A DNA stretch of 32,000 nt from Candidatus Bandiella numerosa (lineage in GTDB: Bacteria; Pseudomonadota; Alphaproteobacteria; Rickettsiales; Midichloriaceae), in the NCBI RefSeq assembly GCF_029981845.1, contig NZ_CP104164.1:1023583-1055582 (forward strand), in the 5' to 3' direction. Below the pieces are notes generated by a model that did not search any database, had not been told where the DNA came from, and was given only the letters and a program-made list of their open reading frames with translations. Position numbers and translations under genes: made by a program. Position 1 is the first letter of the stretch, and each line of letters starts with the position of its first letter. Of this stretch, positions 12,895 to 32,000 are shown piece by piece.

Positions 12895-13034
12895 AGTAAA
12901 CGGGAGTAGTATTGGAACAAAAATGGCATTTATGAAATTAACAGCTCGCTTGAAGCGCCAATTTATGTGATTTTTTTTAAAATGGATTTTAAAAACCTTA
13001 AATTATATATCTCTGAAGAGCACGGCATTCCATG

Positions 13035-16619: not shown

Positions 16620-18093
16620 TACCCTTTACCTCATTATAACTTGTAAACATATGTTGTAATTTCTTCTCAACCATATTTGTCTTTTCTATGACACTTATTG
16701 CTGTTAGCATCCTTTGATATGCTCCAAACCTCTTATCTGTTATTAACTTCCTTGTATCTGATATATTCCTCTTGAAGTTTTCTATATATGTTCCGTCCAT
16801 CTGCACTTTTGCAAGTTCGTCTATATTTACAGCTACAAAGTCCAGTACGCTCTCTAAATACCCAAGTATGTAGTCATATGCGATAGGCTCAGCATATTCA
16901 TGAATGTTTATTACTGAATTACCAACCATAAATGCATTTTGAACTGCAACTATCTTAAGTATCGGTATTTGCGTATTGTTTATTAAATTCTTCTCTTTAT
17001 CTGTTAAATTACCACTATGATCCCTCATTTTAGTTGCTATTCCCCTTAACATCTCTTCTATTTGCGGTACCAATGCTTTTGATTTATCAAACACCATCAC
17101 CGTAGTTCCAACTTTTAGGCATTTTTCTGTATTATCACATGAATATAGTTTCGCTTGCTCCCCACTCTTTGATTCCCCAAACATTAACGTATCTAATACC
17201 TCTGCTTCTTTCACAAGCGTTGCTTTTTCCACCGTCTTTAACTCAGCACTATCTCCACTCCCCTCTTTATACCTAATTATCGTACCACTTATACTCATGA
17301 AGAATTCTGCTGCTGTTTTATTTTCTCCTTCCAGTGTAGCAAATTGTTTCTTAATAGCAGCCCACGCTATGTTAAATTCATCTCCTAATTGATCCTTGTA
17401 TTGATTATCTTTCTTTGAATTTACTTTTTTTCTTTCATTTATATCACCACATTTATGCCTTGCTTCAGCCCAATCTTTAAATTCTGACGTATTAGTTCCC
17501 ATTGATTGGCATATCTGTTGATCTACTCTATCACTCTTTGGCCATGCACCTGCTACTAATGCTGATGCCGTCTCACAACTATTTATATTTAAACTATTGA
17601 TCTCCCTCGCTATATCATTTAACTTTTGCATTGTATTATATACCTGAGGCACATATGTCTGCAGGGCTAAATTAAATGCATATCCCGCTGCATTGCTTGG
17701 CACAGTTCTAAGTGCCTTGATCAAATCTTTCCCTATATGACTAAATGAACCCAAATGTGCGTCTATTCCACCACATCCTGCCTTAATTGACGGTGGCTGA
17801 AAATTAAACAACTGATAACTCTTTGTAGGCACCCTTGCATATATACTTCCTCCTGTGTAATATCCACCAGATTGTGTTTTATAGGATCCCGCACTTGTTA
17901 CATTTACTCCTCCTCCCATTGCACTAAATAAGTTTTCCATATCCTTCCCCACTCCAGCACTCACATCTCTTTTTGTGATTATGAATGTTGTTATTAATAT
18001 TGCATATACCAATATTTTTACTGCTCTTAATGCTCTTGCTACTATCACTGCGCTTCCTAACTTACCCAATTTAAATATTAGCATTCTCTTCAT
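16612..18093 (-). CDS. traH: TraH, F-type T4SS periplasmic protein
   Basis: GGYYTGGSIYARVP, SIKAGCGGIDAHLGSFSHI, NAAGYAFNLALQTYVP, INSLNINSCE and CDNTEKCLKV closely parallel F TraH (SGGSLYART, INAGCGGIDAYLGSFSFI, NAAGYFFDLALQTTVP, CNDSDKCLKV). Confidence 0.9.
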   Translation of the reverse strand: MKRMLIFKLGKLGSAVIVARALRAVKILVYAILITTFIITKRDVSAGVGKDMENLFSAMGGGVNVTSAGSYKTQSGGYYTGGSIYARVPTKSYQLFNFQPPSIKAGCGGIDAHLGSFSHIGKDLIKALRTVPSNAAGYAFNLALQTYVPQVYNTMQKLNDIAREINSLNINSCETASALVAGAWPKSDRVDQQICQSMGTNTSEFKDWAEARHKCGDINERKKVNSKKDNQYKDQLGDEFNIAWAAIKKQFATLEGENKTAAEFFMSISGTIIRYKEGSGDSAELKTVEKATLVKEAEVLDTLMFGESKSGEQAKLYSCDNTEKCLKVGTTVMVFDKSKALVPQIEEMLRGIATKMRDHSGNLTDKEKNLINNTQIPILKIVAVQNAFMVGNSVINIHEYAEPIAYDYILGYLESVLDFVAVNIDELAKVQMDGTYIENFKRNISDTRKLITDKRFGAYQRMLTAISVIEKTNMVEKKLQHMFTSYNEVKGSE

Positions 18094-18094
18094 A

Positions 18095-18919
18095 CTACCT
18101 ACCTTGACTTCTGATCAATTCTACTGCTTCCTTAGTTGCCTCTTTATTTACAACAAGTGCATCAACCCTTTCCTCTATCTCACTCTCACTTATATACCCA
18201 AATGCCAGTGGTATCATATCGCCACTTTTTGGATGTACTGCAATAAGCGCAGGCACCGCCTTAATTCCTAATTGAGTTGATACTCCATTATCCCTTTTTG
18301 CATTTTCAAATCCTTCCATCGGCACATCTCCTATCTGTACTGGCATTAAATCCCAACTATACTCATTTGCAAATCTCTTTACTACACTACTGAATCCTTG
18401 GCAGTATTTACAATCTACTCTAAAAAAATACATCAATCCATATTCCTTACTTAGCTCCCTTATCTTTTGCCTTTTGTTTTTTGATACCTCCTCCTTAGAT
18501 ATATGAAGCGCATTATATGATACTGGATGTTTAAGAGTTCTATCTAACTCTGGATTCTTGTATATCACTTTTTGCCATACCTCAGAGAACTTCTCACTCC
18601 TGTCTGCTATTTTCTCCTGTGTTTTTATATATTCTATTACATTTTTCTCAGTCGGCTTTATCATTGCATTATGCAGTTTACTTTCTACTTCTTTTTTGAT
18701 ATTCTCCACTTCTTGCGTAGGGGTTATAGCATTTGGCTTACTATTTTGTTCATGTGTATCAATCATTTCCTCGCTCTCTTTATTCCTTTCGTACCAATGC
18801 CAACCCCTCGCATGATTTTTGTAAAAGCTTTCATTACAATATCCACTATTTGTCATAGTAAGCACTATACTTACTATAAATATTACTTTTATAACTGATG
18901 TGGATACTGTTTTTTCCAT
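18095..18919 (-). CDS. traF: TraF, thioredoxin-fold T4SS protein, with an intact CxxC motif
   Basis: GWHWYE near the N-terminus and YGLMYFFRVDCKYCQGFS ... LGIKAVPALIAV ... AFGYISESEI parallel F TraF (GWQWYNE, YGIMFFYRGQD, VKYFPAMMLV, SYGFISQDDL). The ATG shares one base with the upstream vapC stop (TAATG). Confidence 0.85.
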   Translation of the reverse strand: MEKTVSTSVIKVIFIVSIVLTMTNSGYCNESFYKNHARGWHWYERNKESEEMIDTHEQNSKPNAITPTQEVENIKKEVESKLHNAMIKPTEKNVIEYIKTQEKIADRSEKFSEVWQKVIYKNPELDRTLKHPVSYNALHISKEEVSKNKRQKIRELSKEYGLMYFFRVDCKYCQGFSSVVKRFANEYSWDLMPVQIGDVPMEGFENAKRDNGVSTQLGIKAVPALIAVHPKSGDMIPLAFGYISESEIEERVDALVVNKEATKEAVELIRSQGR

Positions 18920-19314
18920 TAGCTACTCTTACTATATGCTGCCTTTAAATTTTTTATCATAGGATAATGCTTGATATTTAATGTCTTAAGCTCAAGACCT
19001 AAACATATTGCCGTTGCTCCTATTAAACCATCTGGTAATGCCACACTATGCGATTTATGATATTTCTGCTTATATAAACCACCTTCTTTCGCTATTTCTT
19101 GATTTATAGTTATAACTTCAAAATACTCCGTAAGGCCCTTTATTATATCACATTCCCTCGTATCTCTTGCTCCTGCATATAGTTCAGCTACTGTCACTAC
19201 CGATATACACTGCATCCCAGTTTCTTCTTCAAGTAAATCTCTAGCTTTTGGCTCTCCTTTTAAGTAATCTATAATTACATCTGTATCATATAGGTATTTA
19301 CCTTTTCCAGTCAT
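18919..19314 (-). CDS. vapC: PIN-domain toxin (VapC-like), module 1
   Basis: 131 aa with the conserved acidic pattern YLYDTDVIIDYL, VTVAELYAG, LPDGLIGATAI, and a C-terminal LNIKHY. Overlaps its upstream antitoxin ORF by 17 nt. Confidence 0.8.
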   Translation of the reverse strand: MTGKGKYLYDTDVIIDYLKGEPKARDLLEEETGMQCISVVTVAELYAGARDTRECDIIKGLTEYFEVITINQEIAKEGGLYKQKYHKSHSVALPDGLIGATAICLGLELKTLNIKHYPMIKNLKAAYSKSS

Positions 19315-19510
19315 CTCTCATACCTCTTAAATCAATTTCATATCCGTCCCATATTCCATATGCTTCTTTGAGCTTGCTTTTGTCATATTTCTGTAAAAAC
19401 TCATCTACCGCCTTCCTCACCAACTCTGACTTTGAGCTTCCTATTTTTTTAGCTAACTTATCTAACATTTCATTTGCACTGTTAGGTAAATATAATTGTG
19501 TCTTAAACAT
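19298..19510 (-). CDS. vapB: Ribbon-helix-helix antitoxin (VapB/CopG-like), module 1
   Basis: MFKTQLYLPNSANEMLDKLAKKIGSSKSELVRKAVDEFL has the strand-helix-helix pattern of RHH antitoxins. The start is placed at ATG 19510 because the upstream part of the listed 91-aa ORF contains the promoter. Confidence 0.6.
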   Translation of the reverse strand: MFKTQLYLPNSANEMLDKLAKKIGSSKSELVRKAVDEFLQKYDKSKLKEAYGIWDGYEIDLRGMRDDWKR

Positions 19511-19541
19511 TATGTTGCTGTATATTGTTACTATATCTTTT

Positions 19542-19570
19542 ATTATACTTTTTATGCTTTTTATAATCAA
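19542..19570 (-). promoter_or_regulatory. Sigma-70-like promoter for vapBC module 1
   Basis: The minus strand reads TTGATT (19570-19565), a 17-nt spacer, then TATAAT (19547-19542), 31 nt upstream of ATG 19510. Confidence 0.5.
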
Positions 19571-19583
19571 CATGATTTCTTTT

Positions 19584-19982
19584 TTATTTAATCCAATTCT
19601 CTACTTTAAGTCCTTCTATTCTAGCAAAATCTTTAATGTTATTTGTAACTAAAGTCATTTTCTTGCTTTTAGTTATTGATGCTATACAAATATCCATATC
19701 AGGAACTATCTTGCCTTGCTTTTTCAATTCTGACTTAATCTCCCCATATCTCTTTGCAGCACTGCTGTCAAAATCCAGTACCTTAATATTTCTTATAAAT
19801 CCTCTAACCGTTTCTATATTACCCTTTACTTGAGACGAGTTATACGCTCCAAAATATAATTCAGCTTCATTGATAGCTGTTGTGTGTATCTTATCTATAT
19901 CTATTGAACCTATCTTATTTACAAGAGCATTTTGACCTTGTAAAAAGTATATAATAGTATCTGAGTCTAGTACGTAATTCAT
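19584..19982 (-). CDS. vapC: PIN-domain toxin (VapC-like), module 2
   Basis: YVLDSDTIIYFL, NEAELYFGA, VPDMDICIASIT and TNNIKDF form a canonical PIN acidic residue pattern. ATGA overlap with the upstream antitoxin. Confidence 0.85.
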   Translation of the reverse strand: MNYVLDSDTIIYFLQGQNALVNKIGSIDIDKIHTTAINEAELYFGAYNSSQVKGNIETVRGFIRNIKVLDFDSSAAKRYGEIKSELKKQGKIVPDMDICIASITKSKKMTLVTNNIKDFARIEGLKVENWIK

Positions 19983-20257
19983 TGCATTATCTCCTCTTTA
20001 TTTATTCTGTGCTTTTTAATTATCTCTAATATCTCTTTACCTTGGTCATCTTTTATACTTCCAGCAAAACTCATTAAACTTCCTACTTCTTTTGCTTTCT
20101 TCTCTGCATACATTGCTACTGCTTCTGATATAATTTTACTTCTAGACATGGCATATCTTTCAGACATGCTGATTATTAAATTTCTTATTTTAGGACTAAA
20201 TGTAATTGTCACTGTTGGTCTTTGTGGCTCTTTCATAATATTATAATTATTTGTCAT
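19979..20257 (-). CDS. vapB: Ribbon-helix-helix antitoxin (VapB-like), module 2; start uncertain (20257 or 20236)
   Basis: PTVTITFSPKIRNLIISMSERYAMSRSKIISEAVAMYAEKK is RHH-like. The first ATG of the listed ORF (20266) lies inside the -10 box. ATG 20257 is 7 nt after the -10, compatible with a leaderless mRNA. Confidence 0.6.
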   Translation of the reverse strand: MTNNYNIMKEPQRPTVTITFSPKIRNLIISMSERYAMSRSKIISEAVAMYAEKKAKEVGSLMSFAGSIKDDQGKEILEIIKKHRINKEEIMQ

Positions 20258-20260
20258 GTA

Positions 20261-20293
20261 TTGCATTATACCATATTTATTACTCTAATGCAA
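20261..20293 (-). promoter_or_regulatory. Sigma-70-like promoter with embedded inverted repeat (candidate operator) for vapBC module 2
   Basis: The minus strand reads TTGCAT (20293-20288), a 17-nt spacer, then TATAAT (20270-20265). TTGCATTA (20293-20286) and TAATGCAA (20268-20261) are a perfect 8-bp inverted repeat spanning both boxes. Confidence 0.55.
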
Positions 20294-20349
20294 CTACTGC
20301 ACTTTATATAAATGCTATATTTATAACTTTTTTGCGCCATTATTAACAT

Positions 20350-21789
20350 TTATAACCCTCCATGATCCCTATTTTTATACTCTTCCTTATTGTATAAAGT
20401 CTCCTCATCTTTTGTATCTTTGCTCTTATCTCTCCCATCTGGCTTCTTCTGCCTACTTTCATTTAAATCTTCTGCTTCAGCAAACTTCTTCTCATATAAC
20501 TTCTGATCATCTATCTGCTCATTTATATCTTCTGTGTCATTTTTAGCTGCACCTACACCACCCTCTGCCATCACATCGTTTTTAATTGTATTAATCTCTC
20601 CTTCCATTAATCTTTGCGTATGCTCAAGCGCCTTCTTCATATCTCCCATCCTGCTCCATATATTCTTTTTCTTAATATCTTCAGACAAAAACTCAAAATC
20701 TATCTTCTCAAAATCTATCCCCTGCAATTCCTCTATGCTAAACCCAGTGCAATTAGGTGACTCTACATCTCCCCATCCCTTATTTATTAATCCTTTCTCC
20801 CTAGATTGCTTATTTATCTCCCTCGCTATTTTCGAATCATAACAACAATATGTTGTTCTTTTTATTATGCACGCTCCCAATACTCTACTACTACAAAATG
20901 TCCCAATTTCTACACACCTTTCTTCCTGCTTCATCTTCGCCAGATTCTTATCTCTTGCGCTACATTTTGCTCCTAACATCTTTCCCCATCCTCCTAACTT
21001 CGTACAACAATTTGTATATCCTCCTATTTTCTTATCACATTTTTCATTATTACCCTTAAACACCGAACCATTAGCTTTCCACTCACCCTGCATCTCCTTA
21101 AGTGTAGCCAACATCCCTGCAGCGTTCCCCATCTCATCATTTGCCTTGTAACTCATATCAAAGCATTTTCCATCTATGCACTTTATTTCCTCCCCACACA
21201 CAACTCTTTTTCTCTCCTCTATGTTATCCCTTTTAAATGATGGAGGCCTATACCTCTTCTCCTTTCTTATATATTTCTCACTTTCTTCACAATTATATAC
21301 TCTATTCTGCGCTACACACCAATCTCCCACCTTCTTTTTGCATTCTGTACTCTTTAGCTGGCAATATGATGCATCATCATATTGCGTGCAGTTATTCCTT
21401 GCATATCTCTTACATCTATATGCATCCTTATATCTCCAACAGTCCCTGTAAACAGTTTTTCCATTTATTACCCTACTTGCTCCTGGCTCTATACAATCTC
21501 TTCCAACTCTCTCACACTTCCCATTTAACTCTACTTCTTTTTCTTCTCGCTCTTTCCTTGCTTTTTCTATCACCTCATCCATATCTTCACTTACTTTATA
21601 ACCCTCTCCTGATACTCCAACACTTTTTTCTTTTGCATTAACTTCAATTATTAAAATAATTATTAATGCTATTATTAGCGCAATTCCAAGTAGCGGAATT
21701 TTAAAATATGTGCGTCCTAAAGATCCCGTACTTTCCATTTTTACCAATTTATCATCTTTTATTATCATAGCGGACAATCTCCATCCCAT
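20350..21789 (-). CDS. traN: TraN, C-terminal Cys-rich half with its own N-terminal hydrophobic segment
   Basis: CWRYKDAYRC, VVCGEEIKCIDGKCFD, GGYTNCCTKLGGWG, TFCSSRVLGACIIKRTTYCCYDSKIAREI and PNCTGFSIEELQGIDFEKIDF parallel F TraN (SCWAYRDTY, MVCGGDVFCLDGECD, YSNCCKDSGWG, EFCSKKVLGVCLEKKRSYCQFDSKLAQIV, PDCRGITVDELQKIQFSRLDF). TM/signal segment: YFKIPLLGIALIIALIIILIIEVNA. The start may be 21768. Confidence 0.85.
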   Translation of the reverse strand: MGWRLSAMIIKDDKLVKMESTGSLGRTYFKIPLLGIALIIALIIILIIEVNAKEKSVGVSGEGYKVSEDMDEVIEKARKEREEKEVELNGKCERVGRDCIEPGASRVINGKTVYRDCWRYKDAYRCKRYARNNCTQYDDASYCQLKSTECKKKVGDWCVAQNRVYNCEESEKYIRKEKRYRPPSFKRDNIEERKRVVCGEEIKCIDGKCFDMSYKANDEMGNAAGMLATLKEMQGEWKANGSVFKGNNEKCDKKIGGYTNCCTKLGGWGKMLGAKCSARDKNLAKMKQEERCVEIGTFCSSRVLGACIIKRTTYCCYDSKIAREINKQSREKGLINKGWGDVESPNCTGFSIEELQGIDFEKIDFEFLSEDIKKKNIWSRMGDMKKALEHTQRLMEGEINTIKNDVMAEGGVGAAKNDTEDINEQIDDQKLYEKKFAEAEDLNESRQKKPDGRDKSKDTKDEETLYNKEEYKNRDHGGL

Positions 21790-22946
21790 TCATCACTACC
21801 CCACCTTGTGCAACAATATTGAGTTGCTCTTAACTCAACATATAATCTTCCACTATTCCCAAATGCCAATTCTATTCTAATAGTATTATTTCCATCCCTT
21901 AAATACGGCACTAAATCCACGTTTGGGCTCGTGTTATAGAATCTTTTTGTATTGCACGTTCTTACTACACTTCCTGAATGTAAATTTGTGAATTCACCAT
22001 ATCCTCCATGCCAACTTCTTTCTCTCCAATATGGTCCATCCCCACCCATACTATTATATGCCTGCACCCCATTTACTGATATTCTGATCCAATCACTGTA
22101 TTGTATGTTAGTTACTCTGAATTCCTTTATAATATCTTTATTCTTTACTATAAAATTTATGTTTTTATCAATTATATGACATCTTCCACTATCTCGCACT
22201 TTATCTATTGTCCCTAAATACAAATTCGGGTAATTTGCTCTCCAAAATATATTCCCATCTATACTTCCTTGCACCATTCCTCCTGCATCATATCCACAAT
22301 CCATTTTTTCTATGCATTCCCCCATATTTTTTATACTTCGCTCGCAATAAAATAACTTATCCTCATCTTCTTCACATTTCTTATTCTCTCTTATCAACCT
22401 ACTATCTTCCACATCTACATAATATTCCTCAAACTCTACATTCTCACCTCCCACATTCTTATCCGCTATTTTACACTCTGTTTTTCCTTCTACATTCAAT
22501 CCTGATATCGGATTAGAAGTTACCGCATCACTCTTTTTTATAAATTCTTTATGCTGTAATTTCCCTGCTGTGTAATTTGACCTATGCGGATTCTCTGCAT
22601 ACGAACTCTTTGCAGCTCCTATCGCTTCCCTCACTCCTTCGTTTTCATCCTTCTCTTGTCCCTTTACCCTAGCGTCTCCCTTTGACCTTAATTCATACTC
22701 ACTGTATCCTGATTCCTTTGGCTTCTCTGTATATCCGTCTAATTCCTTTACTTGATTACTAAGCTCTCCCTTACCAGTCTCCCCCACATACTCTTTTGCT
22801 TCTTTTTTATAATCATCTATGTAATTAAAATTATATTCTTCTCCCTTAACTTGCTTCACTTCCATTAATATCACTACGTTCAATATTAATAAAATTGCAA
22901 TTTTACTTTTGCTTCTTTCAACGCTAACTGGCTTTTTTAACCACAT
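21765..22946 (-). CDS. TraN N-terminal-half-like secreted protein
   Basis: Signal-like N-terminus (KIAILLILNVVILMEV). The region KLFYCERSIKNMGECIEK resembles F TraN YTCERDLQVEQYCTR. A beta-rich region ends in CCTRWGSDEWDGDCPL (compare F TraN VVWSESCPFSK). Located exactly where the traN 5' half is expected, after trbC. Confidence 0.55.
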   Translation of the reverse strand: MWLKKPVSVERSKSKIAILLILNVVILMEVKQVKGEEYNFNYIDDYKKEAKEYVGETGKGELSNQVKELDGYTEKPKESGYSEYELRSKGDARVKGQEKDENEGVREAIGAAKSSYAENPHRSNYTAGKLQHKEFIKKSDAVTSNPISGLNVEGKTECKIADKNVGGENVEFEEYYVDVEDSRLIRENKKCEEDEDKLFYCERSIKNMGECIEKMDCGYDAGGMVQGSIDGNIFWRANYPNLYLGTIDKVRDSGRCHIIDKNINFIVKNKDIIKEFRVTNIQYSDWIRISVNGVQAYNSMGGDGPYWRERSWHGGYGEFTNLHSGSVVRTCNTKRFYNTSPNVDLVPYLRDGNNTIRIELAFGNSGRLYVELRATQYCCTRWGSDEWDGDCPL

Positions 22947-23806
22947 ACCATTTCACCAGATTTATTAAATACACCTTCCACATACTCAAAGCTTACATTC
23001 CCTGCTATCTTATTATACTTTGTGCCATTGCAACTTACCGTATCTGCACCTAAATTACCTTTTTCTTCATTCTTGCTACATCCACCCTCCTTAACTCCAG
23101 CAATAACAAATGTTGGCACCACCTTCACTTCAAATTCTTTAAAACTCTCAGGATCTATTACAACTCCATATCCAGTCTTCCTCATCATCTCACTCAAATA
23201 CTTTGCTGTTTTTTTATAACTTCCTTCCTTAAATCCTCTCATCACTGGTACCCACCCCCTTACCTTTGCTTCTCTCACTATATTTTCCAGGTTATTGTCA
23301 CTTAATGACAATGATACAAAAACTAATTTCCTACATTTATTACTAAACCCCAAAATTTCACTACTGCTATTTTTTCCATCTGTAGCATCTACAGCACCAG
23401 CACCTTCAAATAATTTCGTTTCTTTTATATATTCATCCACTCCTTTAAAACTCTTCCTTTTTAGCTCATATGATTCTTTGGCATATTCCTTTGCTTTTTC
23501 TGTTGCATCATTTACATATTTATTAACTTCCTTCTTATTTAATTCCAATACTTTAGGATTATCATATTTCCTAACCTCTCCCTCATATTGTATTGCTTTT
23601 TTTGCTCCTGCTTCCGTAATCTCTCCTAATCCCATCTCTCCTATTATTTCTCTACCCTCTACTTTATTTACCAATTGCAAACATCCTAAAAAACACAGTA
23701 ACAATACTGCCATTGCTTTCTTTATTGCTTTCTTTATTACCTTCTTGCTCACCACCAAATTTAAAGGCTCTTCAGCTAAAAACTCTTTTTTTAAATTTAT
23801 TTTCAT
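22937..23806 (-). CDS. trbC: TrbC, F-type T4SS periplasmic protein
   Basis: LVFVSLSLSDNNLENIVREAKVRGWVPVMRGF ... GVVIDPESFKEFEVKVVPTFVI parallels F TrbC (ALYFVSFSIPEEGLKRMLGETRHFGIPATLRGM ... GVQIDPTLFSQYGIRSVPALVV). Canonical position after traU. Confidence 0.8.
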   Translation of the reverse strand: MKINLKKEFLAEEPLNLVVSKKVIKKAIKKAMAVLLLCFLGCLQLVNKVEGREIIGEMGLGEITEAGAKKAIQYEGEVRKYDNPKVLELNKKEVNKYVNDATEKAKEYAKESYELKRKSFKGVDEYIKETKLFEGAGAVDATDGKNSSSEILGFSNKCRKLVFVSLSLSDNNLENIVREAKVRGWVPVMRGFKEGSYKKTAKYLSEMMRKTGYGVVIDPESFKEFEVKVVPTFVIAGVKEGGCSKNEEKGNLGADTVSCNGTKYNKIAGNVSFEYVEGVFNKSGEMVCG

Positions 23807-23823
23807 TTTCTAAATCACCATAT

Positions 23824-24840
23824 TTACATAATACAGCAATATTTCTTGCGCCATACCAAATACCCAAAATCTTCTCCATTCCCTGGTATTTCTCTCCCCG
23901 CTCCCCATATTGCACTCAGTCTCCCGAATGGATTGCAGCACATACCACCCGTACTATTTGGTATCGGGAATGTCATTTGTAATTTATACTGCGTTTTCTT
24001 AACCTTAACCGCCAACTGCTTCTTGCACACATTACTCACAGTATCCCATGCAAGCCCTACTCTATGTAACCTTGCAATCACCTTTTCCACTATTAAACTA
24101 CTCGCCTGCACTCCTCCTACATGATTCTCTATAAACCCTCCGAATGGATATAACCCTCCATCACATCCTGCGCACCAAAATAAATTATCTGATGAAAATC
24201 CACTCGTTGCCATCATACAATCTGCACTACATGCAAGTTGTGCTATCGGGTTCCCAAATAATATCGCCTCAGGATTTAATATTGCATTTAACTCATCATT
24301 ATTCCAAAGTGGATCAAACTCACTTAAATACGCAACATCTATAGATGTTTGCTCTAAACATACAAAATCCGTCAATAACTCTAACCAATAGATAAGTGGA
24401 TATATATACCAATGTACATGATAAAAACTATGCTTAAGTGCCTCATTATTACTCTTCCTTGCCACACTCCCATGCTTCTTAGCGCTCTTCATTAACTGGA
24501 GCCCTCCAAGACTCACCATACAATATGGTGTCCTCGTAACATCAGCAAGCCTCGCTGGCTCCCAAAAGCTTATTGGTATTCCAGGTACTGGTAATTTCAC
24601 TCCTCCAACATCCTTCATACATAAACATGGGATTGTGCTTGGATTGTTCGTATCTTCCCTCCCACCTGAATATAAAGGTATATTCCCTATTTTTATTGGA
24701 AATATACAACTCCAACATATATCTGTAATCGGATTTACAAATTTACCAACACATGGTTCACTTCTTGCTTTTTCTAAATTACTTGCTAAGGTTAGAATTA
24801 TCGTTATTACTTGTAATAATGGTTTTATATACTTTAATCG
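23824..24840 (-). CDS. traU: TraU, F-type T4SS periplasmic protein; true start unresolved (frame open up to 25353)
   Basis: CVGKFVNPITDICWSCIFPIKIG, ISFWEPARLADVTRTPYCMVSLGG and later blocks closely match F TraU (CEGRFVNPITDICWSCIFPLSLG, ISYWEPMALTDVTRSPGCMVNLGF). A signal-like KYIKPLLQVITIILTLASN precedes them. There is no in-frame ATG/GTG/TTG between 24840 and 25026. Confidence 0.85.
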   Translation of the reverse strand, partial: RLKYIKPLLQVITIILTLASNLEKARSEPCVGKFVNPITDICWSCIFPIKIGNIPLYSGGREDTNNPSTIPCLCMKDVGGVKLPVPGIPISFWEPARLADVTRTPYCMVSLGGLQLMKSAKKHGSVARKSNNEALKHSFYHVHWYIYPLIYWLELLTDFVCLEQTSIDVAYLSEFDPLWNNDELNAILNPEAILFGNPIAQLACSADCMMATSGFSSDNLFWCAGCDGGLYPFGGFIENHVGGVQASSLIVEKVIARLHRVGLAWDTVSNVCKKQLAVKVKKTQYKLQMTFPIPNSTGGMCCNPFGRLSAIWGAGREIPGNGEDFGYLVWRKKYCCIM

Positions 24841-25020
24841 GTCACATTGTTGCTTACAGGTGGGCCCACTATTTTTTCCAAACCTTATGACTTCATACCA
24901 CCTGTGAGCTTCTATATGGATGTTGCTTTCTTCTGGATTTATCTCTATCTCTATGCTATATTCATTACATGAATTACGAATTACACTACTTACTTTTTTA
25001 TGAAAGACGAAGAGGTTACT

Positions 25021-25347
25021 ATGCATTATAAAACTTTTGATACTCATAAATACATTAAAAGCCTCCAAGAAAGCGGCTTTAATGAAAAACAAGCTGAAAT
25101 GCTCGTTAAATCCCTTCTTGAGTCCAGAGACTTTGACCTCTCTATTCTTGCTACTCGTGAACAGGTTGCCAGACTTGACGGTAAAATTGATAAGGTTGAG
25201 TCTAATCTTGAGAAAAAGATTATTGAAGTTAAATCTGAACTCAAAGAAAGTATCTCTAGTATTAAACATGATATGCTTAAATGGATTGTCCCTATGATGC
25301 TTACTATCGTCGGTATTGCAGTTGGAATTGCGCTGAAACTTCTTTAA
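25021..25347 (+). CDS. DUF1640-like small coiled-coil protein with C-terminal TM helix (opposite strand to the tra operon)
   Basis: MHYKTFDTHKYIKSLQESGFNEKQAEMLVKSL, then a coiled-coil, then WIVPMMLTIVGIAVGIALKLL. This matches my recollection of the DUF1640 family layout. RBS GAAGAGG lies 6 nt before ATG 25021 (alternative ATG at 25000). Family assignment is from memory only. Confidence 0.6.
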   Translation: MHYKTFDTHKYIKSLQESGFNEKQAEMLVKSLLESRDFDLSILATREQVARLDGKIDKVESNLEKKIIEVKSELKESISSIKHDMLKWIVPMMLTIVGIAVGIALKLL

Positions 25348-25349
25348 TA

Positions 25350-26474
25350 TCATTCTTCCATACCTATACTTTTACCTTCTTTTTTGGTATTTTTAGCCAA
25401 AGGTTTAAGATTACCAAAATCACTCAATTTCTTTGTCCACTCGTCGCTACTAAAAAGTGATGCTGCTTTTTCCTCACTTTCATGACAAATATTACTTAAT
25501 GTTACTCCTGGATAATTACATAGCGCCAATAATGTTTCTTTTATTTTCTTATCATCTGGATAAAGCTTATGTAATCTATCTAACTCCTCTTTTGCTATTA
25601 AAAAATATTCTTTTGCTAAATCATATCTTGCCAATCCTGCAAGCGAATCCAAATCCAATTCCTCATCCCCGCTATAAGAACGCCCTCGTCCTGCAGCACC
25701 ATACTCATTGATTGCTGCATATAGTATCTCTATTTTTTCTGATCTAGGATTTTGATATATCTCACTCTTTTCTAACTGCTCTGCTTTTTTCGCTAATAGA
25801 TCTCCTTTTAATTTATGTAAAATCCTCTTTTTATCATAAGGTCGCGCTATTTTTAACCCTATGTCACATGCCTTTATACCCTCCTTGATCTTATCTATAT
25901 CCCAACCAACTATTTTTGCTTTTCCTATATACGCATTAACATTCTTTTTATTTAGTGCTATCGCCTTATTATATTCTGCACCTGCAGCTGTGAATTCGCA
26001 TTTCCCACATAATGCATCTCCTTTGTTCACATATGCACTGTCTAGTTTGCTATCCAGCTTTATCGCTTCATTACTAGACTGTATCGCTTTATCATACTGC
26101 TTTTGTAAATTATATAATTCTGCAAGTCTATTATGTATCTTCGCATTCTTTGGCTCATAATTTAAAGCACTTTTTAATTTAAAAATCCCCTCAATAAAAT
26201 CACCCTGCTTAATGTGACATACCGCATCTAACTGCCGTTTTCTTGAGCGCTCTTTATTCCCCCAGGACTCTACTTCAATTGCAATTGCATCACAATAATC
26301 ACCGTATTTATCCAGATTTTCCATATGCTCATCAAGTTTTTTGGCCTCTATCTTCCACTCTTCCTCTCTTTTATCACTTCCTTCTCCTTTATCATGAGCA
26401 AAAGTTTGCGCTATAGCTCCACTCATAATTAAAAAACTTACCAAAGTTATTGGCACTATTTGATTAATTCTCAT
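25350..26474 (-). CDS. Secreted tetratricopeptide-repeat (TPR) protein
   Basis: Signal peptide (VPITLVSFLIMSGAIAQTFA). At least three consecutive TPR units (GDFIEGIFKLKSALNYEPKNAKIHNRLAELYNLQKQYDKAIQSSNEAIKLDSKLDSAYVNKGDAL...AEYNKAIALNKKNVNAYIGKA). ATGA overlaps at both ends couple it to neighbouring ORFs. Confidence 0.8.
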   Translation of the reverse strand: MRINQIVPITLVSFLIMSGAIAQTFAHDKGEGSDKREEEWKIEAKKLDEHMENLDKYGDYCDAIAIEVESWGNKERSRKRQLDAVCHIKQGDFIEGIFKLKSALNYEPKNAKIHNRLAELYNLQKQYDKAIQSSNEAIKLDSKLDSAYVNKGDALCGKCEFTAAGAEYNKAIALNKKNVNAYIGKAKIVGWDIDKIKEGIKACDIGLKIARPYDKKRILHKLKGDLLAKKAEQLEKSEIYQNPRSEKIEILYAAINEYGAAGRGRSYSGDEELDLDSLAGLARYDLAKEYFLIAKEELDRLHKLYPDDKKIKETLLALCNYPGVTLSNICHESEEKAASLFSSDEWTKKLSDFGNLKPLAKNTKKEGKSIGMEE

Positions 26475-27778
26475 ACCCCTCCTTCTCTTTTAGCTAAAGA
26501 GCCTCTAAGCACACAGAAAGACGAGTCTTCTACTAAATACCCTGTTTTTTCATCTATATGCCGCTTGGTTACTCTTTCGGCCGTGATTAAATATTCAGGA
26601 TGTTTATCAATGCATTTATTTTCTTCTTTGACCCTACCCCACTTATACTTATTACCTTCTATAAGCCTCTTTATCGCTTTTTCATCATAGCCCATGCAGC
26701 ATACACTACTAATTTCCCCATTCAATAACCTTAATATCTCATCCTGTGGACTAATATTTGCTATCACCCCCTTCATATGTAACCTTAAAGTGCGCAAATA
26801 TCCTTCTATGAATATTTTCTCTGCTTCATTCTCGAAATCTCCTATCAGCCCCCTCAGTATTATACCTTTGTAAGTTTTCAATCCGCATTGCTTGTCTTTC
26901 ACATCAATGTACGTAAGCACCCCTGCAACTAGTACTTTTTTCACTTCTTCTACTTCATCAAAACTTATTGCACTAAAATCACTCTCTAAATCCAAGTCAG
27001 CCTTTCCATTAAAATATCTGCCATACTTTCCAGTCTCTCCGTATCTGGATAACATGCGTGCAATATATTCAGCATTCTCCTTAGGGTTACTTTCAGTTTG
27101 CAACATCCATTTGATTAAATCACTTATTCCTGCTTTTTCTTTTTTTTCCTTCCATACTCCTTTCACCCCTTCCTCTATTAGATACATATTTACGTAATTG
27201 TCCTTCTGCTCTCCTGCTTTTCCATCTGATACCATTATCTTAATTAAGGCAGATATCAGCCATAAACCATCTTCTTCAAAATATTCTTGCTCTTTATTCA
27301 GCACACTAAATGGGTTGATGCATACATATTTATCATTAGCTATACTTATATACTCTTTGCCAAATTTTTGAGCTTCATTCTCAAAATCTCTTCCTGCATC
27401 CAATATGCATACCTTATCCTTCTGCTCTATAATACTATTTGACAGCTCTTGCATGAATCTTAATCCATCATTACTTGCTCTCTGATCACCCTCTACTACT
27501 GCAACATTATTATTAATCACTATTTCTCTATCAAATGGATACCAATAAAACTTACCTTTCTTTCTACCCCATAACTCCACACCTGAGGTTATGTTTGTCT
27601 CCTCAATTATATATTTGTCAGCCTCATCTTGATGGGTTTGATTATATTCTTCTGCGGTTTTTAACATACCAGCTATCCTATTTTTGTACTTTGTATATCC
27701 CCGCACTAAAGATATAAGAACTCCTGTACATCCCCCTATTGTTATTGACGCAATAATCATTTCAGAATTTATATACAT
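26471..27778 (-). CDS. Membrane-anchored TraC (VirB4)-like C-terminal-domain paralogue with degenerate Walker A and B motifs
   Basis: Alignable with TraC residues ~450-800: FYWYPFD/YYWYPFD, RFMQEL/VFMQEL, CINPFS/CLNPFS, KAGISDLIKWM/KAGIGDLAEWF, GKYGRYFNGKADLDLES/GAYGKYFNGKANIDFSA. GRSGAGKS is replaced by EGDQRASNDG, and IIFDEAWDL by IILRGLIGDF. N-terminal helix: IIASITIGGCTGVLISLV. Confidence 0.75.
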   Translation of the reverse strand: MYINSEMIIASITIGGCTGVLISLVRGYTKYKNRIAGMLKTAEEYNQTHQDEADKYIIEETNITSGVELWGRKKGKFYWYPFDREIVINNNVAVVEGDQRASNDGLRFMQELSNSIIEQKDKVCILDAGRDFENEAQKFGKEYISIANDKYVCINPFSVLNKEQEYFEEDGLWLISALIKIMVSDGKAGEQKDNYVNMYLIEEGVKGVWKEKKEKAGISDLIKWMLQTESNPKENAEYIARMLSRYGETGKYGRYFNGKADLDLESDFSAISFDEVEEVKKVLVAGVLTYIDVKDKQCGLKTYKGIILRGLIGDFENEAEKIFIEGYLRTLRLHMKGVIANISPQDEILRLLNGEISSVCCMGYDEKAIKRLIEGNKYKWGRVKEENKCIDKHPEYLITAERVTKRHIDEKTGYLVEDSSFCVLRGSLAKREGGV

Positions 27779-28494
27779 TATCCTACTTCCACCTCCTTTA
27801 TCTTAAGCACTTTTCCTTCTTGCCTCACTACCGCAGGAACTGCTTTTATCCCAAGCTGCTTTATCAGCACTCCTCTTTGATCAAAGTAAAAATCTAATTT
27901 ATACTCCTCTTCTAATTTAACAGGAGATCCTCCTGTTAATATTAACTTTGGCTTTATTTCTGATTCTTCGTATTTTTTAATTACATACTTTAATTGATCC
28001 TCGTCTTCCCCATCAAAAAATATTAACTCATATGGCATACTAACCACATCCAGTGGGTTTACCTTTGTTCCCTTCCTATGGAACACTATACCCCTTGCGT
28101 CTCTTAAATCTTCCTTTACCTCTATACTCGGATCGTATTCATATTCTCTTACTTCACTAACCCTTCCTAAATTTAAAGATTTGGGACTCTTAATTCTACC
28201 ACTTACCTCTTTCTTCATTCTTTCGTTATGCTCATCCAACTCTCCTCTTGCTTCCATATCACTTAACTTGCCCTTTATCTCCTCTATCGCATCTACTTCC
28301 TTAATTTCACTCGTCCTTCCAACCACTCCAAAATCTTTTGCCTTTGCATTAATTGAAAGTAATAAAAAACATATTACTATTAACATCGCTACCCCTACTA
28401 TAGCGATACCAGTTGTTGTTATAACTCTAACCCACCAATAAACCTTATCTTCTATTTTCTGGTTTTTACTATAATTCTTCCTAACCATCTCCAT
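27778..28494 (-). CDS. traW: TraW, F-type T4SS periplasmic protein
   Basis: DLRDARGIVFHRKGTKVNPLD, LIFFDGEDEDQLKYV, KLILTGGS and FYFDQRGVLIKQLGIKAVPAVV parallel F TraW (DIRDNEGRVFARQGEVMNPL, LYFINGDDPAQVAWM, KIILVQGS, VYFDQNGVLCQRLGIDQVPARV). Confidence 0.85.
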   Translation of the reverse strand: MEMVRKNYSKNQKIEDKVYWWVRVITTTGIAIVGVAMLIVICFLLLSINAKAKDFGVVGRTSEIKEVDAIEEIKGKLSDMEARGELDEHNERMKKEVSGRIKSPKSLNLGRVSEVREYEYDPSIEVKEDLRDARGIVFHRKGTKVNPLDVVSMPYELIFFDGEDEDQLKYVIKKYEESEIKPKLILTGGSPVKLEEEYKLDFYFDQRGVLIKQLGIKAVPAVVRQEGKVLKIKEVEVG

Positions 28495-30982
28495 ACATCT
28501 CCTTCGCTACCTGTTCTACCGCCTCTTCTAACTTCTTCCCATCTCCCTCATATCTTTTAACTCTCTCATACTCCTCCGGCTTTGTTGAATATAACACCCT
28601 AGAAAATGGTTCAAGTATCAATCTACCTATGCTCGCATGCTCAGATGTCATTATCATCACTTCTGAATACTCACCAGGCTTTGACGTTACCGACTCTAAC
28701 ATTTTCTGCTGATAATCATTGATCTTAAATTTTTCACTCTTCTTAAGTAACGCTATCGACTCACTCTTCTGCTTCAAACAACATAACCAATCACTATTCA
28801 TAAATGCAGCCTCAGCTCCAGGACTTGAATAAAAATCATCTAGATTCTGTGTTCCCACCACCAGCGCTCCTCTATACTTTCTAAGCGTTCTTGCAAGCCT
28901 CTCTATAAATTCTCCTCCCTGCTTACCCTTAAGTAAATCCCATGCCTCATCAAATATTATTGCACTCTCTACCTTCCTTCCCCCAAGTATCACCTGATTT
29001 GTAATCAGTAACATTAATATCTGTACTACAACTCTCTGCAAATCCTTCTTACTCTTTAACTCCTCTAATTCTGTTACAAAAAATCTCGCACTAAAATCTA
29101 TATTAGCCTTACCATTAAAATATTTCCCGTACGCTCCATCCCTCGTATATGGAAATAACATCGTCCCTATCCTTTGACACGTAACTCTATCCTCTTCCTG
29201 ATTCAAAAACCACTCCGCTAAATCTCCAATTCCTGCTTTAGATCCTTTCTCACTCCACACTTCCATTAACGCCTTCTCTATCAATGAATCTTCATAACTA
29301 CTTGTCCCTTCTTTCGGTGCTGCCATCATACTTATTATTGGCTTCATTACCGATAGCGCATCCTCTATATGCTCCTTTGACCTCTCATCTATACTGCTAA
29401 ATGGATTTAAACATAATCCCGATTCCGTGCTAAATTCTATAAACTGCCCATCTAACATCTTCACCTGCTTCTCAAAACTCCTTCCCACATCAAGTACATA
29501 TACCTTCCCTCCCCTCCTAAGTATACTTACCGCAAGCTCCTGCATAAATACTGACTTCCCAGCTCCACTCCTTCCTACTACCGATACATTGTAATTTGTA
29601 TTTCCTAAACTCTCATCAAATGGATACCAGTAGTATAACTGCCCTCTCCTTCCTGCAAGCAACATTCCTGCCTTTTTACATCCCTTTGACTCTCCTTGTA
29701 GTGGCATCATGTTAACAGGCTCATGCGATAGTGTCGTTCTTAACTTCTTTAAGTAACTCATATCTAACGCCATATCTTCTCCCCATAATAACGGCAATAT
29801 ACTCTTAAGTGATAACATCACCACAAACCTATCTCTCTTTAACTCCCATCCATTCGCTCTATATAAACTATTCACTATTTGCTCAGATGATCCTATACTC
29901 TCTTTTTTATCTATAAGTACTATCTGCATTCCAGTCCTTACCAACCTCTCATTCTTTTCTAATTGCTCCCTCACAAATTCCCATTCCTTCGCTTCTCGCT
30001 TAAGCGCCGGTATCCAATTCCCAAGTGGCGATGATGCCTGTGACTCCACCCTAGATGCTTTCGCCAACATCCCAGTCTTCTTAAGTTTTCCATTCTCTAT
30101 ATGAACCCCCAGATGAATTAGAAAACTACATGGTATTTTTAGATAATCATTAAACTGATCTCCTATTAAATTATTCATCAATCCAAATCCCCACGCTCCC
30201 GGATATCTCTTCACACTCAAAAATCTCATCTCATACTCACCCTCATCCATCGTTATACTATCCGCATTTAACCCATACTGTTTATCCTTATCTATTATTT
30301 GGTATTTTATTTCATTATGAGGATTCCACTCCCCTATACTCCTGCCACCACTCTCATTATAATTTAATATGTCACTCAAATAACTTATTAAATCTTCAGG
30401 CCTAAATACATGCGCTTCCCCACTCCTTGTTTCAAATGCAGATTTAACCTGCTCTTTTAATTCCGCAATCTTACTTCTTACTACTGGCCCTTTCTCACTC
30501 ACTGGCATTGATACCGATACCAACCCCCTAAAATCTCTTATCCTAAACTTCCCCTTACCCCTTCTACTCAACTCCTCAAAATACTTCGCTCTTTTTTCTT
30601 CTAATTTCCCGATTATGCTCCCCTTATTCTCTTTTACCTTCCAATTATCTATTATGTGCTCCACTTTCGGCATTGCAGATAATAAAAATTGTATATTTGA
30701 CCCCTCTGGCAATATACTTCCAAATAACCCTGATAATTCATTTTCTAACTTTCCCTCGCTCCCCACATATAATCCAATCTCAAATATAAATCCTATACTG
30801 CTACTTCCTAAAAATAACCCATGCTCATCATCGTAACTTTCATATGGCAATAAATCACTCAAACTATGATAACTTAAAAACTCTTTCGCTTTCCTCCTTA
30901 CCTCACTTCCTTTTAAGTTAGTCCCATATTCACTACTCTCTCCAAAATACTGAGCTATCTTTTTTGCTAAATTATTCAACAT
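28481..30982 (-). CDS. traC: TraC, F-type T4SS VirB4-family ATPase
   Basis: 833 aa. The N-terminus (LLPYESYDDEHGLFL...IGFIFE) parallels F TraC (LLPYRDYNQESGLFM...MGFMLE). Intact Walker A VVGRSGAGKS and Walker B AIIFDEAWDL. Canonical position after traV. Confidence 0.95.
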   Translation of the reverse strand: MLNNLAKKIAQYFGESSEYGTNLKGSEVRRKAKEFLSYHSLSDLLPYESYDDEHGLFLGSSSIGFIFEIGLYVGSEGKLENELSGLFGSILPEGSNIQFLLSAMPKVEHIIDNWKVKENKGSIIGKLEEKRAKYFEELSRRGKGKFRIRDFRGLVSVSMPVSEKGPVVRSKIAELKEQVKSAFETRSGEAHVFRPEDLISYLSDILNYNESGGRSIGEWNPHNEIKYQIIDKDKQYGLNADSITMDEGEYEMRFLSVKRYPGAWGFGLMNNLIGDQFNDYLKIPCSFLIHLGVHIENGKLKKTGMLAKASRVESQASSPLGNWIPALKREAKEWEFVREQLEKNERLVRTGMQIVLIDKKESIGSSEQIVNSLYRANGWELKRDRFVVMLSLKSILPLLWGEDMALDMSYLKKLRTTLSHEPVNMMPLQGESKGCKKAGMLLAGRRGQLYYWYPFDESLGNTNYNVSVVGRSGAGKSVFMQELAVSILRRGGKVYVLDVGRSFEKQVKMLDGQFIEFSTESGLCLNPFSSIDERSKEHIEDALSVMKPIISMMAAPKEGTSSYEDSLIEKALMEVWSEKGSKAGIGDLAEWFLNQEEDRVTCQRIGTMLFPYTRDGAYGKYFNGKANIDFSARFFVTELEELKSKKDLQRVVVQILMLLITNQVILGGRKVESAIIFDEAWDLLKGKQGGEFIERLARTLRKYRGALVVGTQNLDDFYSSPGAEAAFMNSDWLCCLKQKSESIALLKKSEKFKINDYQQKMLESVTSKPGEYSEVMIMTSEHASIGRLILEPFSRVLYSTKPEEYERVKRYEGDGKKLEEAVEQVAKEMYGDG

Positions 30983-31370
30983 CTACCCACCTGCCTCCTT
31001 CTATTACCGTATATAGATATGTCTCCCCTATGTAATCTCCCATCTCATCCTCAAATCCATTAATCCACACTCTCCCTGTCTGCTCCGGCACCCTTCTTAC
31101 TTCGTTTTGTAATTTTTTATTCTCTACCTCCCCTCTATACTCTTCAATAATTCTAAGCCTCACAAATCTACCGTGATTTTCCTTTATTGAATCAATTTTT
31201 CCTTTCCCTAGCTCTCCTTTTGTCACCATCTCATTTACTTCAGTCACTGACTTACATCCAGCTCCCATTCCTACTCCACACTCCGTTACTTTCTTGCCAC
31301 TACATCCAACTAAACCCGTAACTAATATTATAACCACTATTATTTTTTTCATCTTAATCACCCTTTTCAT
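30972..31370 (-). CDS. traV: TraV, T4SS outer-membrane lipoprotein (start 31370 preferred; ORF open to 31403)
   Basis: Signal peptide with lipobox LVGC (KKIIVVIILVTGLVGCSGKK), small size, located between traB and traC. AAGGA lies ~9 nt before ATG 31370. Confidence 0.7.
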   Translation of the reverse strand: MKRVIKMKKIIVVIILVTGLVGCSGKKVTECGVGMGAGCKSVTEVNEMVTKGELGKGKIDSIKENHGRFVRLRIIEEYRGEVENKKLQNEVRRVPEQTGRVWINGFEDEMGDYIGETYLYTVIEGGRWVDVE

Positions 31371-31386
31371 TTTGATTTTTCCTTTT

Positions 31387-32000
31387 TTAATATTCATTAT
31401 CATTTACTTCTTGCTTTGATACTTCTAATTCCTTTTCTCTCTTAATACTTAATCTCTCTTTGACTCTACTACTTCCAATATCGGCCCCTTCTGTAAATAC
31501 AACATCCACTATTCTTCCACTTTCAATCTGAATAATCGGCTGTATACTCTCAGCCCTATCTATATAATATTTCGATAACCTATCCATACTGCTGCTTGCT
31601 CCTGACATCATCCCCTCATTAAATTTATCACTCGTACTTCTCTTTGGTATAAATGCTCCCATTGGATTTATCACTGCAGGTTGACTTGGATTAAATACTC
31701 CAGCTACTCCCTGCAACACTCCTCCCAAAACACTCTTTGCCAAATATCCCCTTCCCTTTTCTACCACTATTCCTTTTATCCCTGCTCTCCCATCCTCTCC
31801 TGTCACATATCCTGCAACTTCCGTCTCTATTATTTCTCCACTCGTCCTCTCAACACATGTTAGCTTTTCTAACCTCGCAAATACCCTCTCACTCGATAAA
31901 TCTCCATATCCACTCCCAACTATATGACAGTCCTTCAAATCACTTTGAAACTTCCTAGGTAATGTTCCCCTATCTATCAATCTTATTAATATAGGCCTTG
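31387..32000 (-). CDS. traB: TraB (VirB10-like), copy 2, 5' part outside window; intact native 3' end
   Basis: About 98 percent identical at DNA level to 5349-5908, and continues past the copy-1 breakpoint with REKELEVSKQEVNDNEY and a stop. Followed directly by traV, as in F-type operons. Confidence 0.9.
   Translation of the reverse strand, partial: RPILIRLIDRGTLPRKFQSDLKDCHIVGSGYGDLSSERVFARLEKLTCVERTSGEIIETEVAGYVTGEDGRAGIKGIVVEKGRGYLAKSVLGGVLQGVAGVFNPSQPAVINPMGAFIPKRSTSDKFNEGMMSGASSSMDRLSKYYIDRAESIQPIIQIESGRIVDVVFTEGADIGSSRVKERLSIKREKELEVSKQEVNDNEY
31441..32000 (-). repeat. Inverted repeat arm (traB 3' region), partner at 5349-5908
   Basis: See the partner arm at 5349-5908. Identity stops exactly at 31441/31440, which corresponds to the element A IR junction 5908/5909. 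Confidence 0.9.

Follow-up and report, generated by a model that had tools for sequence, protein, structure and literature searches.

A conserved TraC/VirB4 paralogue lacking nucleotide-binding motifs in the F-type tra operon of Candidatus Bandiella numerosa

Introduction

Dead paralogues of motor ATPases often serve as regulators or scaffolds. To our knowledge, RvhB4-II is the only such paralogue of a type IV secretion system (T4SS) that has been discussed, and for over a decade its function has gone unexplained. Here we describe X (pseudo-TraC), a 435-residue TraC/VirB4-like protein encoded within an F-type tra operon of Candidatus Bandiella numerosa (Rickettsiales, Midichloriaceae). The gene lies in a 32,000-nucleotide stretch of contig NZ_CP104164.1 (positions 1,023,583 to 1,055,582), hereafter called the window.

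RvhB4-II belongs to the P-type rvh T4SS of Rickettsiales. The protein lacks the conserved ATPase active sites, yet it is conserved across Rickettsiales and is "similar in size to RvhB4-I" (PMC4676284). Compared with the canonical copy, it evolves more rapidly and is presumed to be structural or regulatory (PMC4676284, PMC10732058). Like RvhB4-II, X is encoded by a second, conserved VirB4-family gene beside a canonical one, has lost its active-site residues, and is less constrained than the canonical protein, here TraC. RvhB4-II is a full-length protein with N- and C-terminal domains, encoded at a separate locus of an effector-secretion system, whereas X lacks the N-terminal domain, carries an apparently TraL/VirB3-like anchor, and is encoded inside the tra operon. 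RvhB4-II, from the same bacterial order, is the closest precedent for X. A preliminary description of the window, made from the sequence alone, knew of no equivalent in F-type systems. The literature searched likewise held nothing relevant on an F-type equivalent of X or on the tra genes of Midichloriaceae, the dead VirB4 precedent being that of the P-type rvh system (PMC4676284).

Results

Homology of X to the C-terminal half of TraC

X aligns to the TraC of the window with 30% identity and 50% positives over 324 residues (BLASTP, E 3e-40), a match that chance would not give. The alignment joins residues 65–379 of X to residues 438–753 of TraC. The NCBIfam profile of F-type TraC, TIGR02746, matches X with an E-value of 1.4e-30 at profile positions 407–629 of 800. 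The score of X is 106 bits, below the family cutoff of 567, and the TraC of the window scores 741 bits, above it. Pfam PF19044 matches X weakly, at 20.1 bits against a threshold of 25.8. The N-terminal TraC_F_IV domain (PF11130) has no Pfam match in X, and the BLASTP alignment starts only at TraC residue 438. The preliminary description had read the open reading frame (ORF) of X as homologous to the C-terminal half of TraC; the ORF call, the BLASTP alignment and TIGR02746 agree with it, and all six peptide matches that it quoted between the two proteins were found.

The structure of X was predicted with AlphaFold2 from a 13-sequence alignment. The model has a predicted template modelling score of 0.72 and a predicted local distance difference test (pLDDT) value of 69 overall, and of 84–93 in the core. 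In a Foldseek search of the PDB, the top matches of the model are structures of the VirB4 C-terminal domain from Thermoanaerobacter pseudethanolicus, 4AG5 and 4AG6, with E-values of 2e-9 to 1e-8, a probability of 1.0, and TM-scores of 0.63–0.66 normalised to the target. Further matches are R388 TrwK/VirB4 (8RTD, 7O43 and 7O42), DndH-C and TrwB. The sequence profile of the X family gave no match to PDB sequences. Comparisons by hidden Markov model (HMM) and by structure both recover TraC/VirB4, the fold that the preliminary description had proposed, and by sequence and model X is a paralogue of TraC/VirB4.

X shares with F-type TraC (TIGR02746; PF11130 plus PF19044) the C-terminal fold, about 30% identity over the aligned 324 residues, structural motifs and the operon. 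Unlike TraC, it is about half as long, begins with a transmembrane segment, contains neither the TraC_F_IV domain nor Walker A, Walker B or the Thr-Gln pair of motif E, and scores far below the family cutoffs.

Loss of the catalytic motifs

The Walker A site of TraC, VVGRSGAGKSVF (GRSGAGKS), corresponds to VVEGDQRASNDGLRF in X (core EGDQRASNDGLR). At Walker B, AIIFDEAWDL of TraC is replaced by GIILRGLIGDF, and the consensus of the X family is IILRDLI. The motif D/E region reads RTLRKYRGALVVGTQ in TraC and RTLRLHMKGVIANIS in X. Within its pattern RxxxGxxxxxTQ, X keeps two arginines (R329 and R332), the glycine is changed to lysine, and the Thr-Gln pair to Ile-Ser. A search of the whole protein for GK[ST], GxxGxGK and hhhhDE found none of them. 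Intact nucleotide-binding motifs displaced by a few positions were considered and ruled out by this search, and MAFFT and BLAST place the substitutions exactly at the motif sites. The losses of Walker A and Walker B reported in the preliminary description were thus confirmed, and the Thr-Gln pair of motif E is gone as well.

The substituted motifs are the same in X homologues down to 43% identity. The Walker A replacements G470E, G475A and K476S (TraC numbering) are each conserved in eight or nine of nine X sequences. Conserved sites were audited in the C-terminal domain of TraC, in 76 columns with at least 85% conservation among 32 TraCs. X retains 31 of these columns, and 18 have switched to another residue conserved among X proteins; 22 are variable and five are deleted. 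The switched columns include the three Walker A positions as well as D678R, E679D (G in the window copy), G710N and T711I. The retained ones include YWYPFD, FMQEL, LDxGRxF(E), CxNPFS, YGxYFNG, and the motif-D arginines (R698 and R701 of TraC). Judged from these alignments, X keeps the structural core and loses the residues that bind nucleotide in cis. Because the lysine and glycines of Walker A, the Asp-Glu pair of Walker B, and the Thr-Gln pair of motif E are all replaced, X is predicted neither to bind nor to hydrolyse ATP.

Selection on X and damaged copies

Ratios of non-synonymous to synonymous substitution rates (dN/dS) were calculated by the Nei-Gojobori method for 21 pairs of X genes, and seven unsaturated pairs were bootstrapped with 1000 replicates. 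The ratio is 0.19–0.40 across all 21 pairs. In the seven bootstrapped pairs it is 0.29–0.40, the upper bounds of the 95% confidence intervals do not exceed 0.58, and none of the 1000 replicates reaches 1. Therefore, X is under purifying selection and is maintained. Constraint differs along the protein. The TraC-like core (residues 65–345) has a dN/dS of 0.20–0.41 and the former P-loop segment 0.07–0.5, while the N-terminal anchor and linker evolve fast (0.5–1.3). TraC, TraW and TraU are under stronger constraint than X, with close-pair values of 0.03–0.16. The most recent comparisons agree. Between the X genes of the window and locus L013 (98.8% nucleotide identity), 11 codon differences are synonymous and 10 are non-synonymous, which gives a ratio of about 0.26 when sites are counted roughly. 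The X genes of the window and L019 show 10 synonymous and 8 non-synonymous differences ahead of a frameshift in L019.

Several copies of X are damaged. In L016, the gene is split by an IS21-like insertion within a degraded element. In-frame deletions reduce X to 344 residues in L017 and L018, where the rest of the operon is intact. L019 and L020 carry a C-terminal frameshift near codon 415. The proposal that X is retained rather than debris holds in light of the selection values, the synteny, and the substituted motifs conserved to 43% identity. Decay of a duplicate, with dN/dS near 1 and frequent disruptions, had been named as the outcome that would speak against it; the ratios lie below 1 (0.19–0.40), and some disrupted copies do occur.

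Distribution and operon context

The X family is tiny and narrowly distributed. A search of 5.8 billion proteins returned 11 X clusters with 98–43% identity to X of the window, all of them metagenomic. In an exhaustive profile search of 1.84 billion representatives, only four X clusters were found at 50% identity; below them the scores fall from 545 bits to 172, the level at which authentic TraCs start. One of 185,579 species-representative genomes contains X (locus L001), an uncultured Candidatus Midichloriaceae metagenome-assembled genome of the order Rickettsiales. The scan of GTDB genomes contributed one locus and that of Joint Genome Institute (JGI) metagenomes five. The plasmid database held no X homologue, its matches being genuine TraCs of about 25% identity. 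Candidates for further short paralogues (P0028, P0050, P0053, P0055, P0093 and P0079) were rejected as TraC fragments with an intact Walker A. At least 10 intact homologues are available, down to 43% identity. The JGI name of one homologue, P0004, is "conjugal transfer ATP-binding protein TraC", an automated label that is misleading for proteins of the X type.

In every locus with enough flanking sequence, X lies inside an F-type operon of the order traL-E-K-B-V-C-W-X-...-U-trbC-N-F-H-G. The order traC-traW-X-(TPR or small gene)-traU, where TPR denotes tetratricopeptide repeat, recurs with start/stop overlaps in at least eight independent loci. In the window, the stop of traW and the start of X share TAATG. 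The stop of X and the start of the TPR gene share ATGA, and an AGGAGG Shine-Dalgarno sequence precedes the TPR start. These overlaps, both as previously described, suggest translational coupling of X to its neighbours. The purine loading of X resembles that of the adjoining genes, also in keeping with the preliminary description. In L015, a staphylococcal-nuclease-like gene (SNase, E 7e-22; L015 positions 6984–7496) takes the place of traW directly upstream of X.

N-terminal membrane anchor

The sole hydrophobic segment of X spans residues 7–25, with a 19-residue Kyte-Doolittle mean of 2.13. Five lysines or arginines lie within 15 residues downstream of the helix and none upstream. We infer a topology with the N-terminus outside and the C-terminus inside, in which the TraC-like domain would be cytoplasmic.

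Longer homologues (L001, L005, L007, L011, L015 and P0011) have 30–50 extra N-terminal residues, made up of a run of basic residues, a motif of the LNKP type and two hydrophobic helices. The top Pfam match of this long N-terminus is TraL (PF07178), with an E-value of 0.0014; its score, 19.3 bits, falls short of the gathering score (24.4). When aligned by hhalign to the TraL proteins of the same elements, the long N-terminus gives a probability of 94%, an E-value of 1.2e-7 and a score of 43, with 57 columns in register; reversed and column-shuffled controls score at most 15. The X copies of the window and L009 keep the second helix of the hairpin alone. In the AlphaFold2 model of the long-form protein P0009, the N-terminus is helical at low confidence (pLDDT 58), too low for a fold search. 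From these comparisons, members of the family appear to be built of a hairpin resembling TraL/VirB3, followed by a charged linker and a dead C-terminal domain of VirB4. The preliminary description had the N-terminal half of TraC replaced by a single hydrophobic helix. The loss of the domain and the one helix of the window copy are as described, and the helix appears to be the remnant of the hairpin seen in longer homologues.

Natural VirB3-VirB4 fusions exist in some T4SSs. Longer X homologues resemble them in that a segment apparently like TraL/VirB3 is joined to VirB4-like sequence. In known fusions, however, VirB3 is followed by a complete, active VirB4, whereas the ATPase of X is dead and X lacks the N-terminal domain that VirB3 normally contacts; the window copy has the second helix only.

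Origin of X

A neighbour-joining tree of the C-terminal domains was calculated from 369 columns with 200 bootstraps. X proteins are monophyletic with 100% bootstrap support and sit on a long stem. They fall within the clade of F-type TraCs that holds the co-resident TraCs, a placement with weak support of about 50%. The tree points to a single duplication, after which X was rapidly remodelled and then conserved. Since X nests within F-type TraC, and TIGR02746 (106 bits) outscores VirB4_CagE (32 bits) on it, X and RvhB4-II appear to have independent, convergent origins; this assignment is by tree position and HMM scores.

Genes next to X

The coordinates of X, its motifs and the neighbouring genes are given in Table 1.

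Table 1. Features of X and of the adjacent tra genes, in window coordinates
Feature	Coordinates	Strand	Evidence
X (pseudo-TraC), N-terminally truncated TraC paralogue, predicted catalytically dead, 435 aa	26471..27778	-	ORF with ATG start; homology, fold, dN/dS
TraC/VirB4 C-terminal-domain-like core of X, residues 65-379	26642..27586	-	Extent of BLASTP alignment; highest pLDDT in model
N-terminal transmembrane helix of X, residues 7-25, MIIASITIGGCTGVLISLV; corresponds to second helix of the putative TraL/VirB3-like hairpin of longer homologues	27704..27760	-	Kyte-Doolittle; alignment; hhalign
Former Walker A site VVEGDQRASNDGLRF, without GxxGxGK[ST]	27455..27499	-	Alignment with TraC and motif search
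Former Walker B site KGIILRGLIG; TraC D678-E679 changed to R-G in window copy, R-D in family consensus	26840..26869	-	Alignment and motif search
Motif D/E region RTLRLHMKGVIANISPQ; two arginines kept, G and TQ lost	26744..26794	-	Alignment and motif search
Authentic TraC, 833 aa, Walker A and B intact, parental family of X	28481..30982	-	Pfam TraC_F_IV E 3e-70, P-loop_TraG E 1.5e-37
traW, 238 aa, stop overlaps X start	27778..28494	-	Weak TraW_N match; syntenic TraW in related loci; junction sequence
Signal-peptide TPR protein, 374 aa, start overlaps X stop	25350..26474	-	Pfam TPR families; orthologues in L007, L015
Antisense DUF1640/CCDC90-like gene, 115 aa, cargo of window lineage, outside conserved unit	25000..25347	+	Pfam PF07798 E 4e-12
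traU	23824..24747	-	Pfam TraU E 6e-113, residues 203-508 of 509-aa ORF

The TPR genes directly downstream of X in L007 and L015 are orthologous to that of the window (BLASTP from residue 1, E 1e-31 and 8e-16). The alignments include a non-repeat motif, EAKxLDxHMxNLxKYGDYC. X and an orthologous TPR gene therefore recur in three deep lineages. Because the X lineages of L007 and L015 diverge most, the pairing of X with the TPR gene is probably ancestral. No TPR gene lies next to X in L001, L004, L011, L009 or L017, and L005 has a non-orthologous one upstream. Between X and traU, a single-helix protein of 81–86 residues (MKNIINQIQNNKKLL...) replaces the TPR gene in L009 (7152–7397), L005 (9422–9682) and L017 (7032–7277). 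It is conserved, with 80% identity between L009 and L005, and has no family match.

Between the TPR gene and traU, in antisense orientation, lies the gene of the DUF1640/CCDC90-like protein, which has a coiled coil and a C-terminal transmembrane helix. No DUF1640 gene was called between X and traU in L001, L004, L005, L009, L011 or L017, and blastn matched the window interval 26480–24761 to none of the compared loci. The preliminary description had joined X, the TPR gene and the antisense gene into a three-gene block. The pairing of X with the TPR gene recurs, as given above, while the antisense gene is limited to the window lineage and several lineages have no TPR gene. TraU of related loci is 348–386 residues long. 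The 509-residue traU ORF has a long N-terminal extension opposite the DUF1640 gene, which is probably a spurious read-through.

Other features of the window

Two nearly identical tra clusters are each partly present in the window: traT-ssb-traL/E/K/B (plus strand) and traB-V-C-W-X-...-G (minus strand). Their traB copies run in opposite directions (4697–5965, plus strand; 31387–31980, minus strand) and are 99% identical (178 of 180 residues) until the plus-strand copy meets Tn3. The duplicate clusters reflect either Tn3-mediated rearrangement or an assembly chimera. The block of Tn3-family transposases (6166–13979) contains one split gene (6166–7692 and 7614–9227), one gene for 826 residues (10414–12894) and one fragment (13491–13979). 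Perfect inverted repeats of about 900 nucleotides lie at 6683–7577 and 13082–13975. The Tn3 block has a lower GC content, of 26–30%, and no purine skew. The tra genes (14000–32000 and 1–6000) show extreme purine loading of the coding strand, with an absolute GC skew of 0.35–0.62 and an AT skew of 0.1–0.3, far above the Tn3 region. TraG (13965–16619, minus strand) abuts the Tn3 fragment and has 884 residues, compared with 1189–1308 in related loci. Because TraG is truncated, the tra copy of the window is probably conjugation-defective.

Between traN and traF, two tandem pairs of ribbon-helix-helix (RHH) antitoxin and PIN toxin genes are present (18919–20266, minus strand), and RHH-PIN modules occur at the same position in L004, L005, L011 and L017. 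A 393-residue ORF between trbC and traN (21765–22946, minus strand) has a weak TraN-like NCBIfam match (E 5e-5) and no Pfam match. Related loci have an ORF of 393–430 residues in the same position, which suggests a split or duplicated N-terminal module of TraN. A fragment of a group-II-intron-type reverse transcriptase (60–1680, plus strand; RVT_1, E 5e-30) lies immediately upstream of, and overlaps, the gene of a TraT-like surface-exclusion lipoprotein (E 2.5e-67).

Discussion

We propose, at roughly even odds in our own estimate, that X is a non-catalytic, membrane-tethered accessory subunit that docks on the C-terminal domains of TraC or on the inner-membrane complex and scaffolds or modulates the motor. 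X would be a duplicated and remodelled RecA-like C-terminal domain of the F-type VirB4 ATPase TraC. The TraL/VirB3-like anchor, with one helix in the window copy, would tether it to the inner membrane and hold the TraC-like domain in the cytoplasm. There, X could dock onto or intercalate with the C-terminal domains of TraC via its retained structural core, including the two motif-D arginines. By analogy with what has been proposed for RvhB4-II in rvh, docking might scaffold or tune the activity of TraC. The association with TraC or the inner-membrane complex, like the regulatory effect, is something we infer.

Several findings weigh against such a subunit. The tree of X is discordant with that of TraC and also conflicts with TraW and TraU. 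Between the window and L009, amino-acid identity is 75% for X and 48% for TraC; L001 and L005 share 49% in X and 80% in TraC. For the window and L004, synonymous divergence (dS) amounts to 0.47 in X and 1.5 in TraC, and it is saturated in TraW and TraU. If X were an obligate partner that co-evolves tightly with TraC, it would be expected to track TraC, and it does not. In close pairs, X is selected 5–10 times less strongly than TraC (0.29–0.40 versus 0.03–0.06). The damaged copies in L016, L017/L018 and L019/L020 mean that X is dispensable in at least some settings. The T4SS copy of the window itself looks defective, its traG being truncated by Tn3, and the confidence of the X model is moderate (pLDDT 69). 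The discordance of X with its flanks extends to the nucleotide level. The body of X (27639–26481) is 80–84% identical to L001, L004 and L011, compared with 67–74% for the flanking traC, traW and traU (blastn), and L015 has X though its TraC is phylogenetically distant. The discordance therefore indicates that X has been exchanged by recombination among T4SS lineages. Such exchange speaks against strict co-evolution with one TraC and leaves room for a role in interference.

X as an interference factor would be dominant-negative: the tethered dead domain would cap or poison TraC hexamers of a related element that is co-resident or incoming or, under some conditions, of its own element, as a fertility-inhibition, exclusion-like or brake module and not as an assembly subunit. 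The behaviour of X as an exchangeable module, discordant with TraC, TraW and TraU, fits this role, as do host elements that are multi-copy and rearranged, with the near-identical traB copies and Tn3 repeats of the window. Intermediate selection of about 0.3, the fast N-terminus (0.5–1.3), and the occasional loss of X while the rest of the operon stays point the same way. However, we detected no signature of positive selection in the core (0.20–0.41), X sits within the assembly operon, apparently in translational coupling, and not in a regulatory, leading or exclusion region, and plain gene conversion among co-resident copies could also explain the discordant tree. We know of no fertility-inhibition system that acts via a VirB4 mimic, and on balance we think interference rather improbable. 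We also consider it unlikely that X has been neofunctionalised and no longer works with TraC, its VirB4-like fold serving instead as a platform in the cytoplasm, of receptor or chaperone type, that recruits, for example, substrate or relaxosome, or as half of a trans-membrane signalling or assembly pair with the periplasmic TPR protein. The replacement of the P-loop, EGDxRASNDGLRF, is itself highly conserved (dN/dS 0.07–0.5), which suggests a new constrained surface, and the 18 switched columns were once invariant in TraC. F-type systems lack VirB11, so that an extra cytoplasmic platform is plausible. The orthologous TPR gene immediately downstream in three deep lineages would suit a signalling pair, but the signal peptide makes the TPR protein periplasmic while most of X is predicted to lie in the cytoplasm, the gene is absent beside X in the five loci listed above, and the sequence points to no ligand or partner.

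That X is a decaying duplicate, a functionless pseudogene left over from TraC, is largely refuted by dN/dS and conservation, and we regard it as very improbable. Decay would account for the loss of all catalytic motifs, for the copies with an insertion sequence, in-frame deletions or a frameshift, for the visible degradation of the host elements, and for selection weaker than on adjoining genes. Against it stand an ORF intact in at least 10 lineages with the same replacement residues at the dead motifs, dN/dS significantly below 1 in every bootstrapped pair, with agreement from the most recent comparisons, and a fixed position with overlaps that suggest translational coupling. A long stem with a conserved crown is the pattern of neofunctionalisation and not of decay, and a dS of 0.25–2 between copies speaks against their very recent spread by transfer.

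Returning to X as an accessory subunit, we tentatively raise a broader possibility. Rickettsiales-type T4SSs may have evolved a dead VirB4 subunit at least twice independently, as RvhB4-II in the P-type rvh system and as X in an F-type conjugation system, and X may be a minimal, horizontally exchangeable combination of a VirB3-like anchor and a dead C-terminal domain that gates or brakes the motor in the TraC ring or inner-membrane complex, possibly acting on rival co-resident elements. If so, the C-terminal and not the N-terminal domain of VirB4 would be the part that a pseudo-subunit needs.

The X family is tiny, occurs only in uncultured bacteria, and includes copies in decay. Within these bounds, X provides an independent, F-type example of a dead VirB4 paralogue with a simpler architecture of a membrane anchor and a C-terminal domain only. 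It narrows which part of VirB4 matters for a non-catalytic role, and offers a compact construct for tests against TraC in heterologous F-like systems. The existence of X suggests a recurring selective value of non-catalytic VirB4 subunits in obligate intracellular bacteria.

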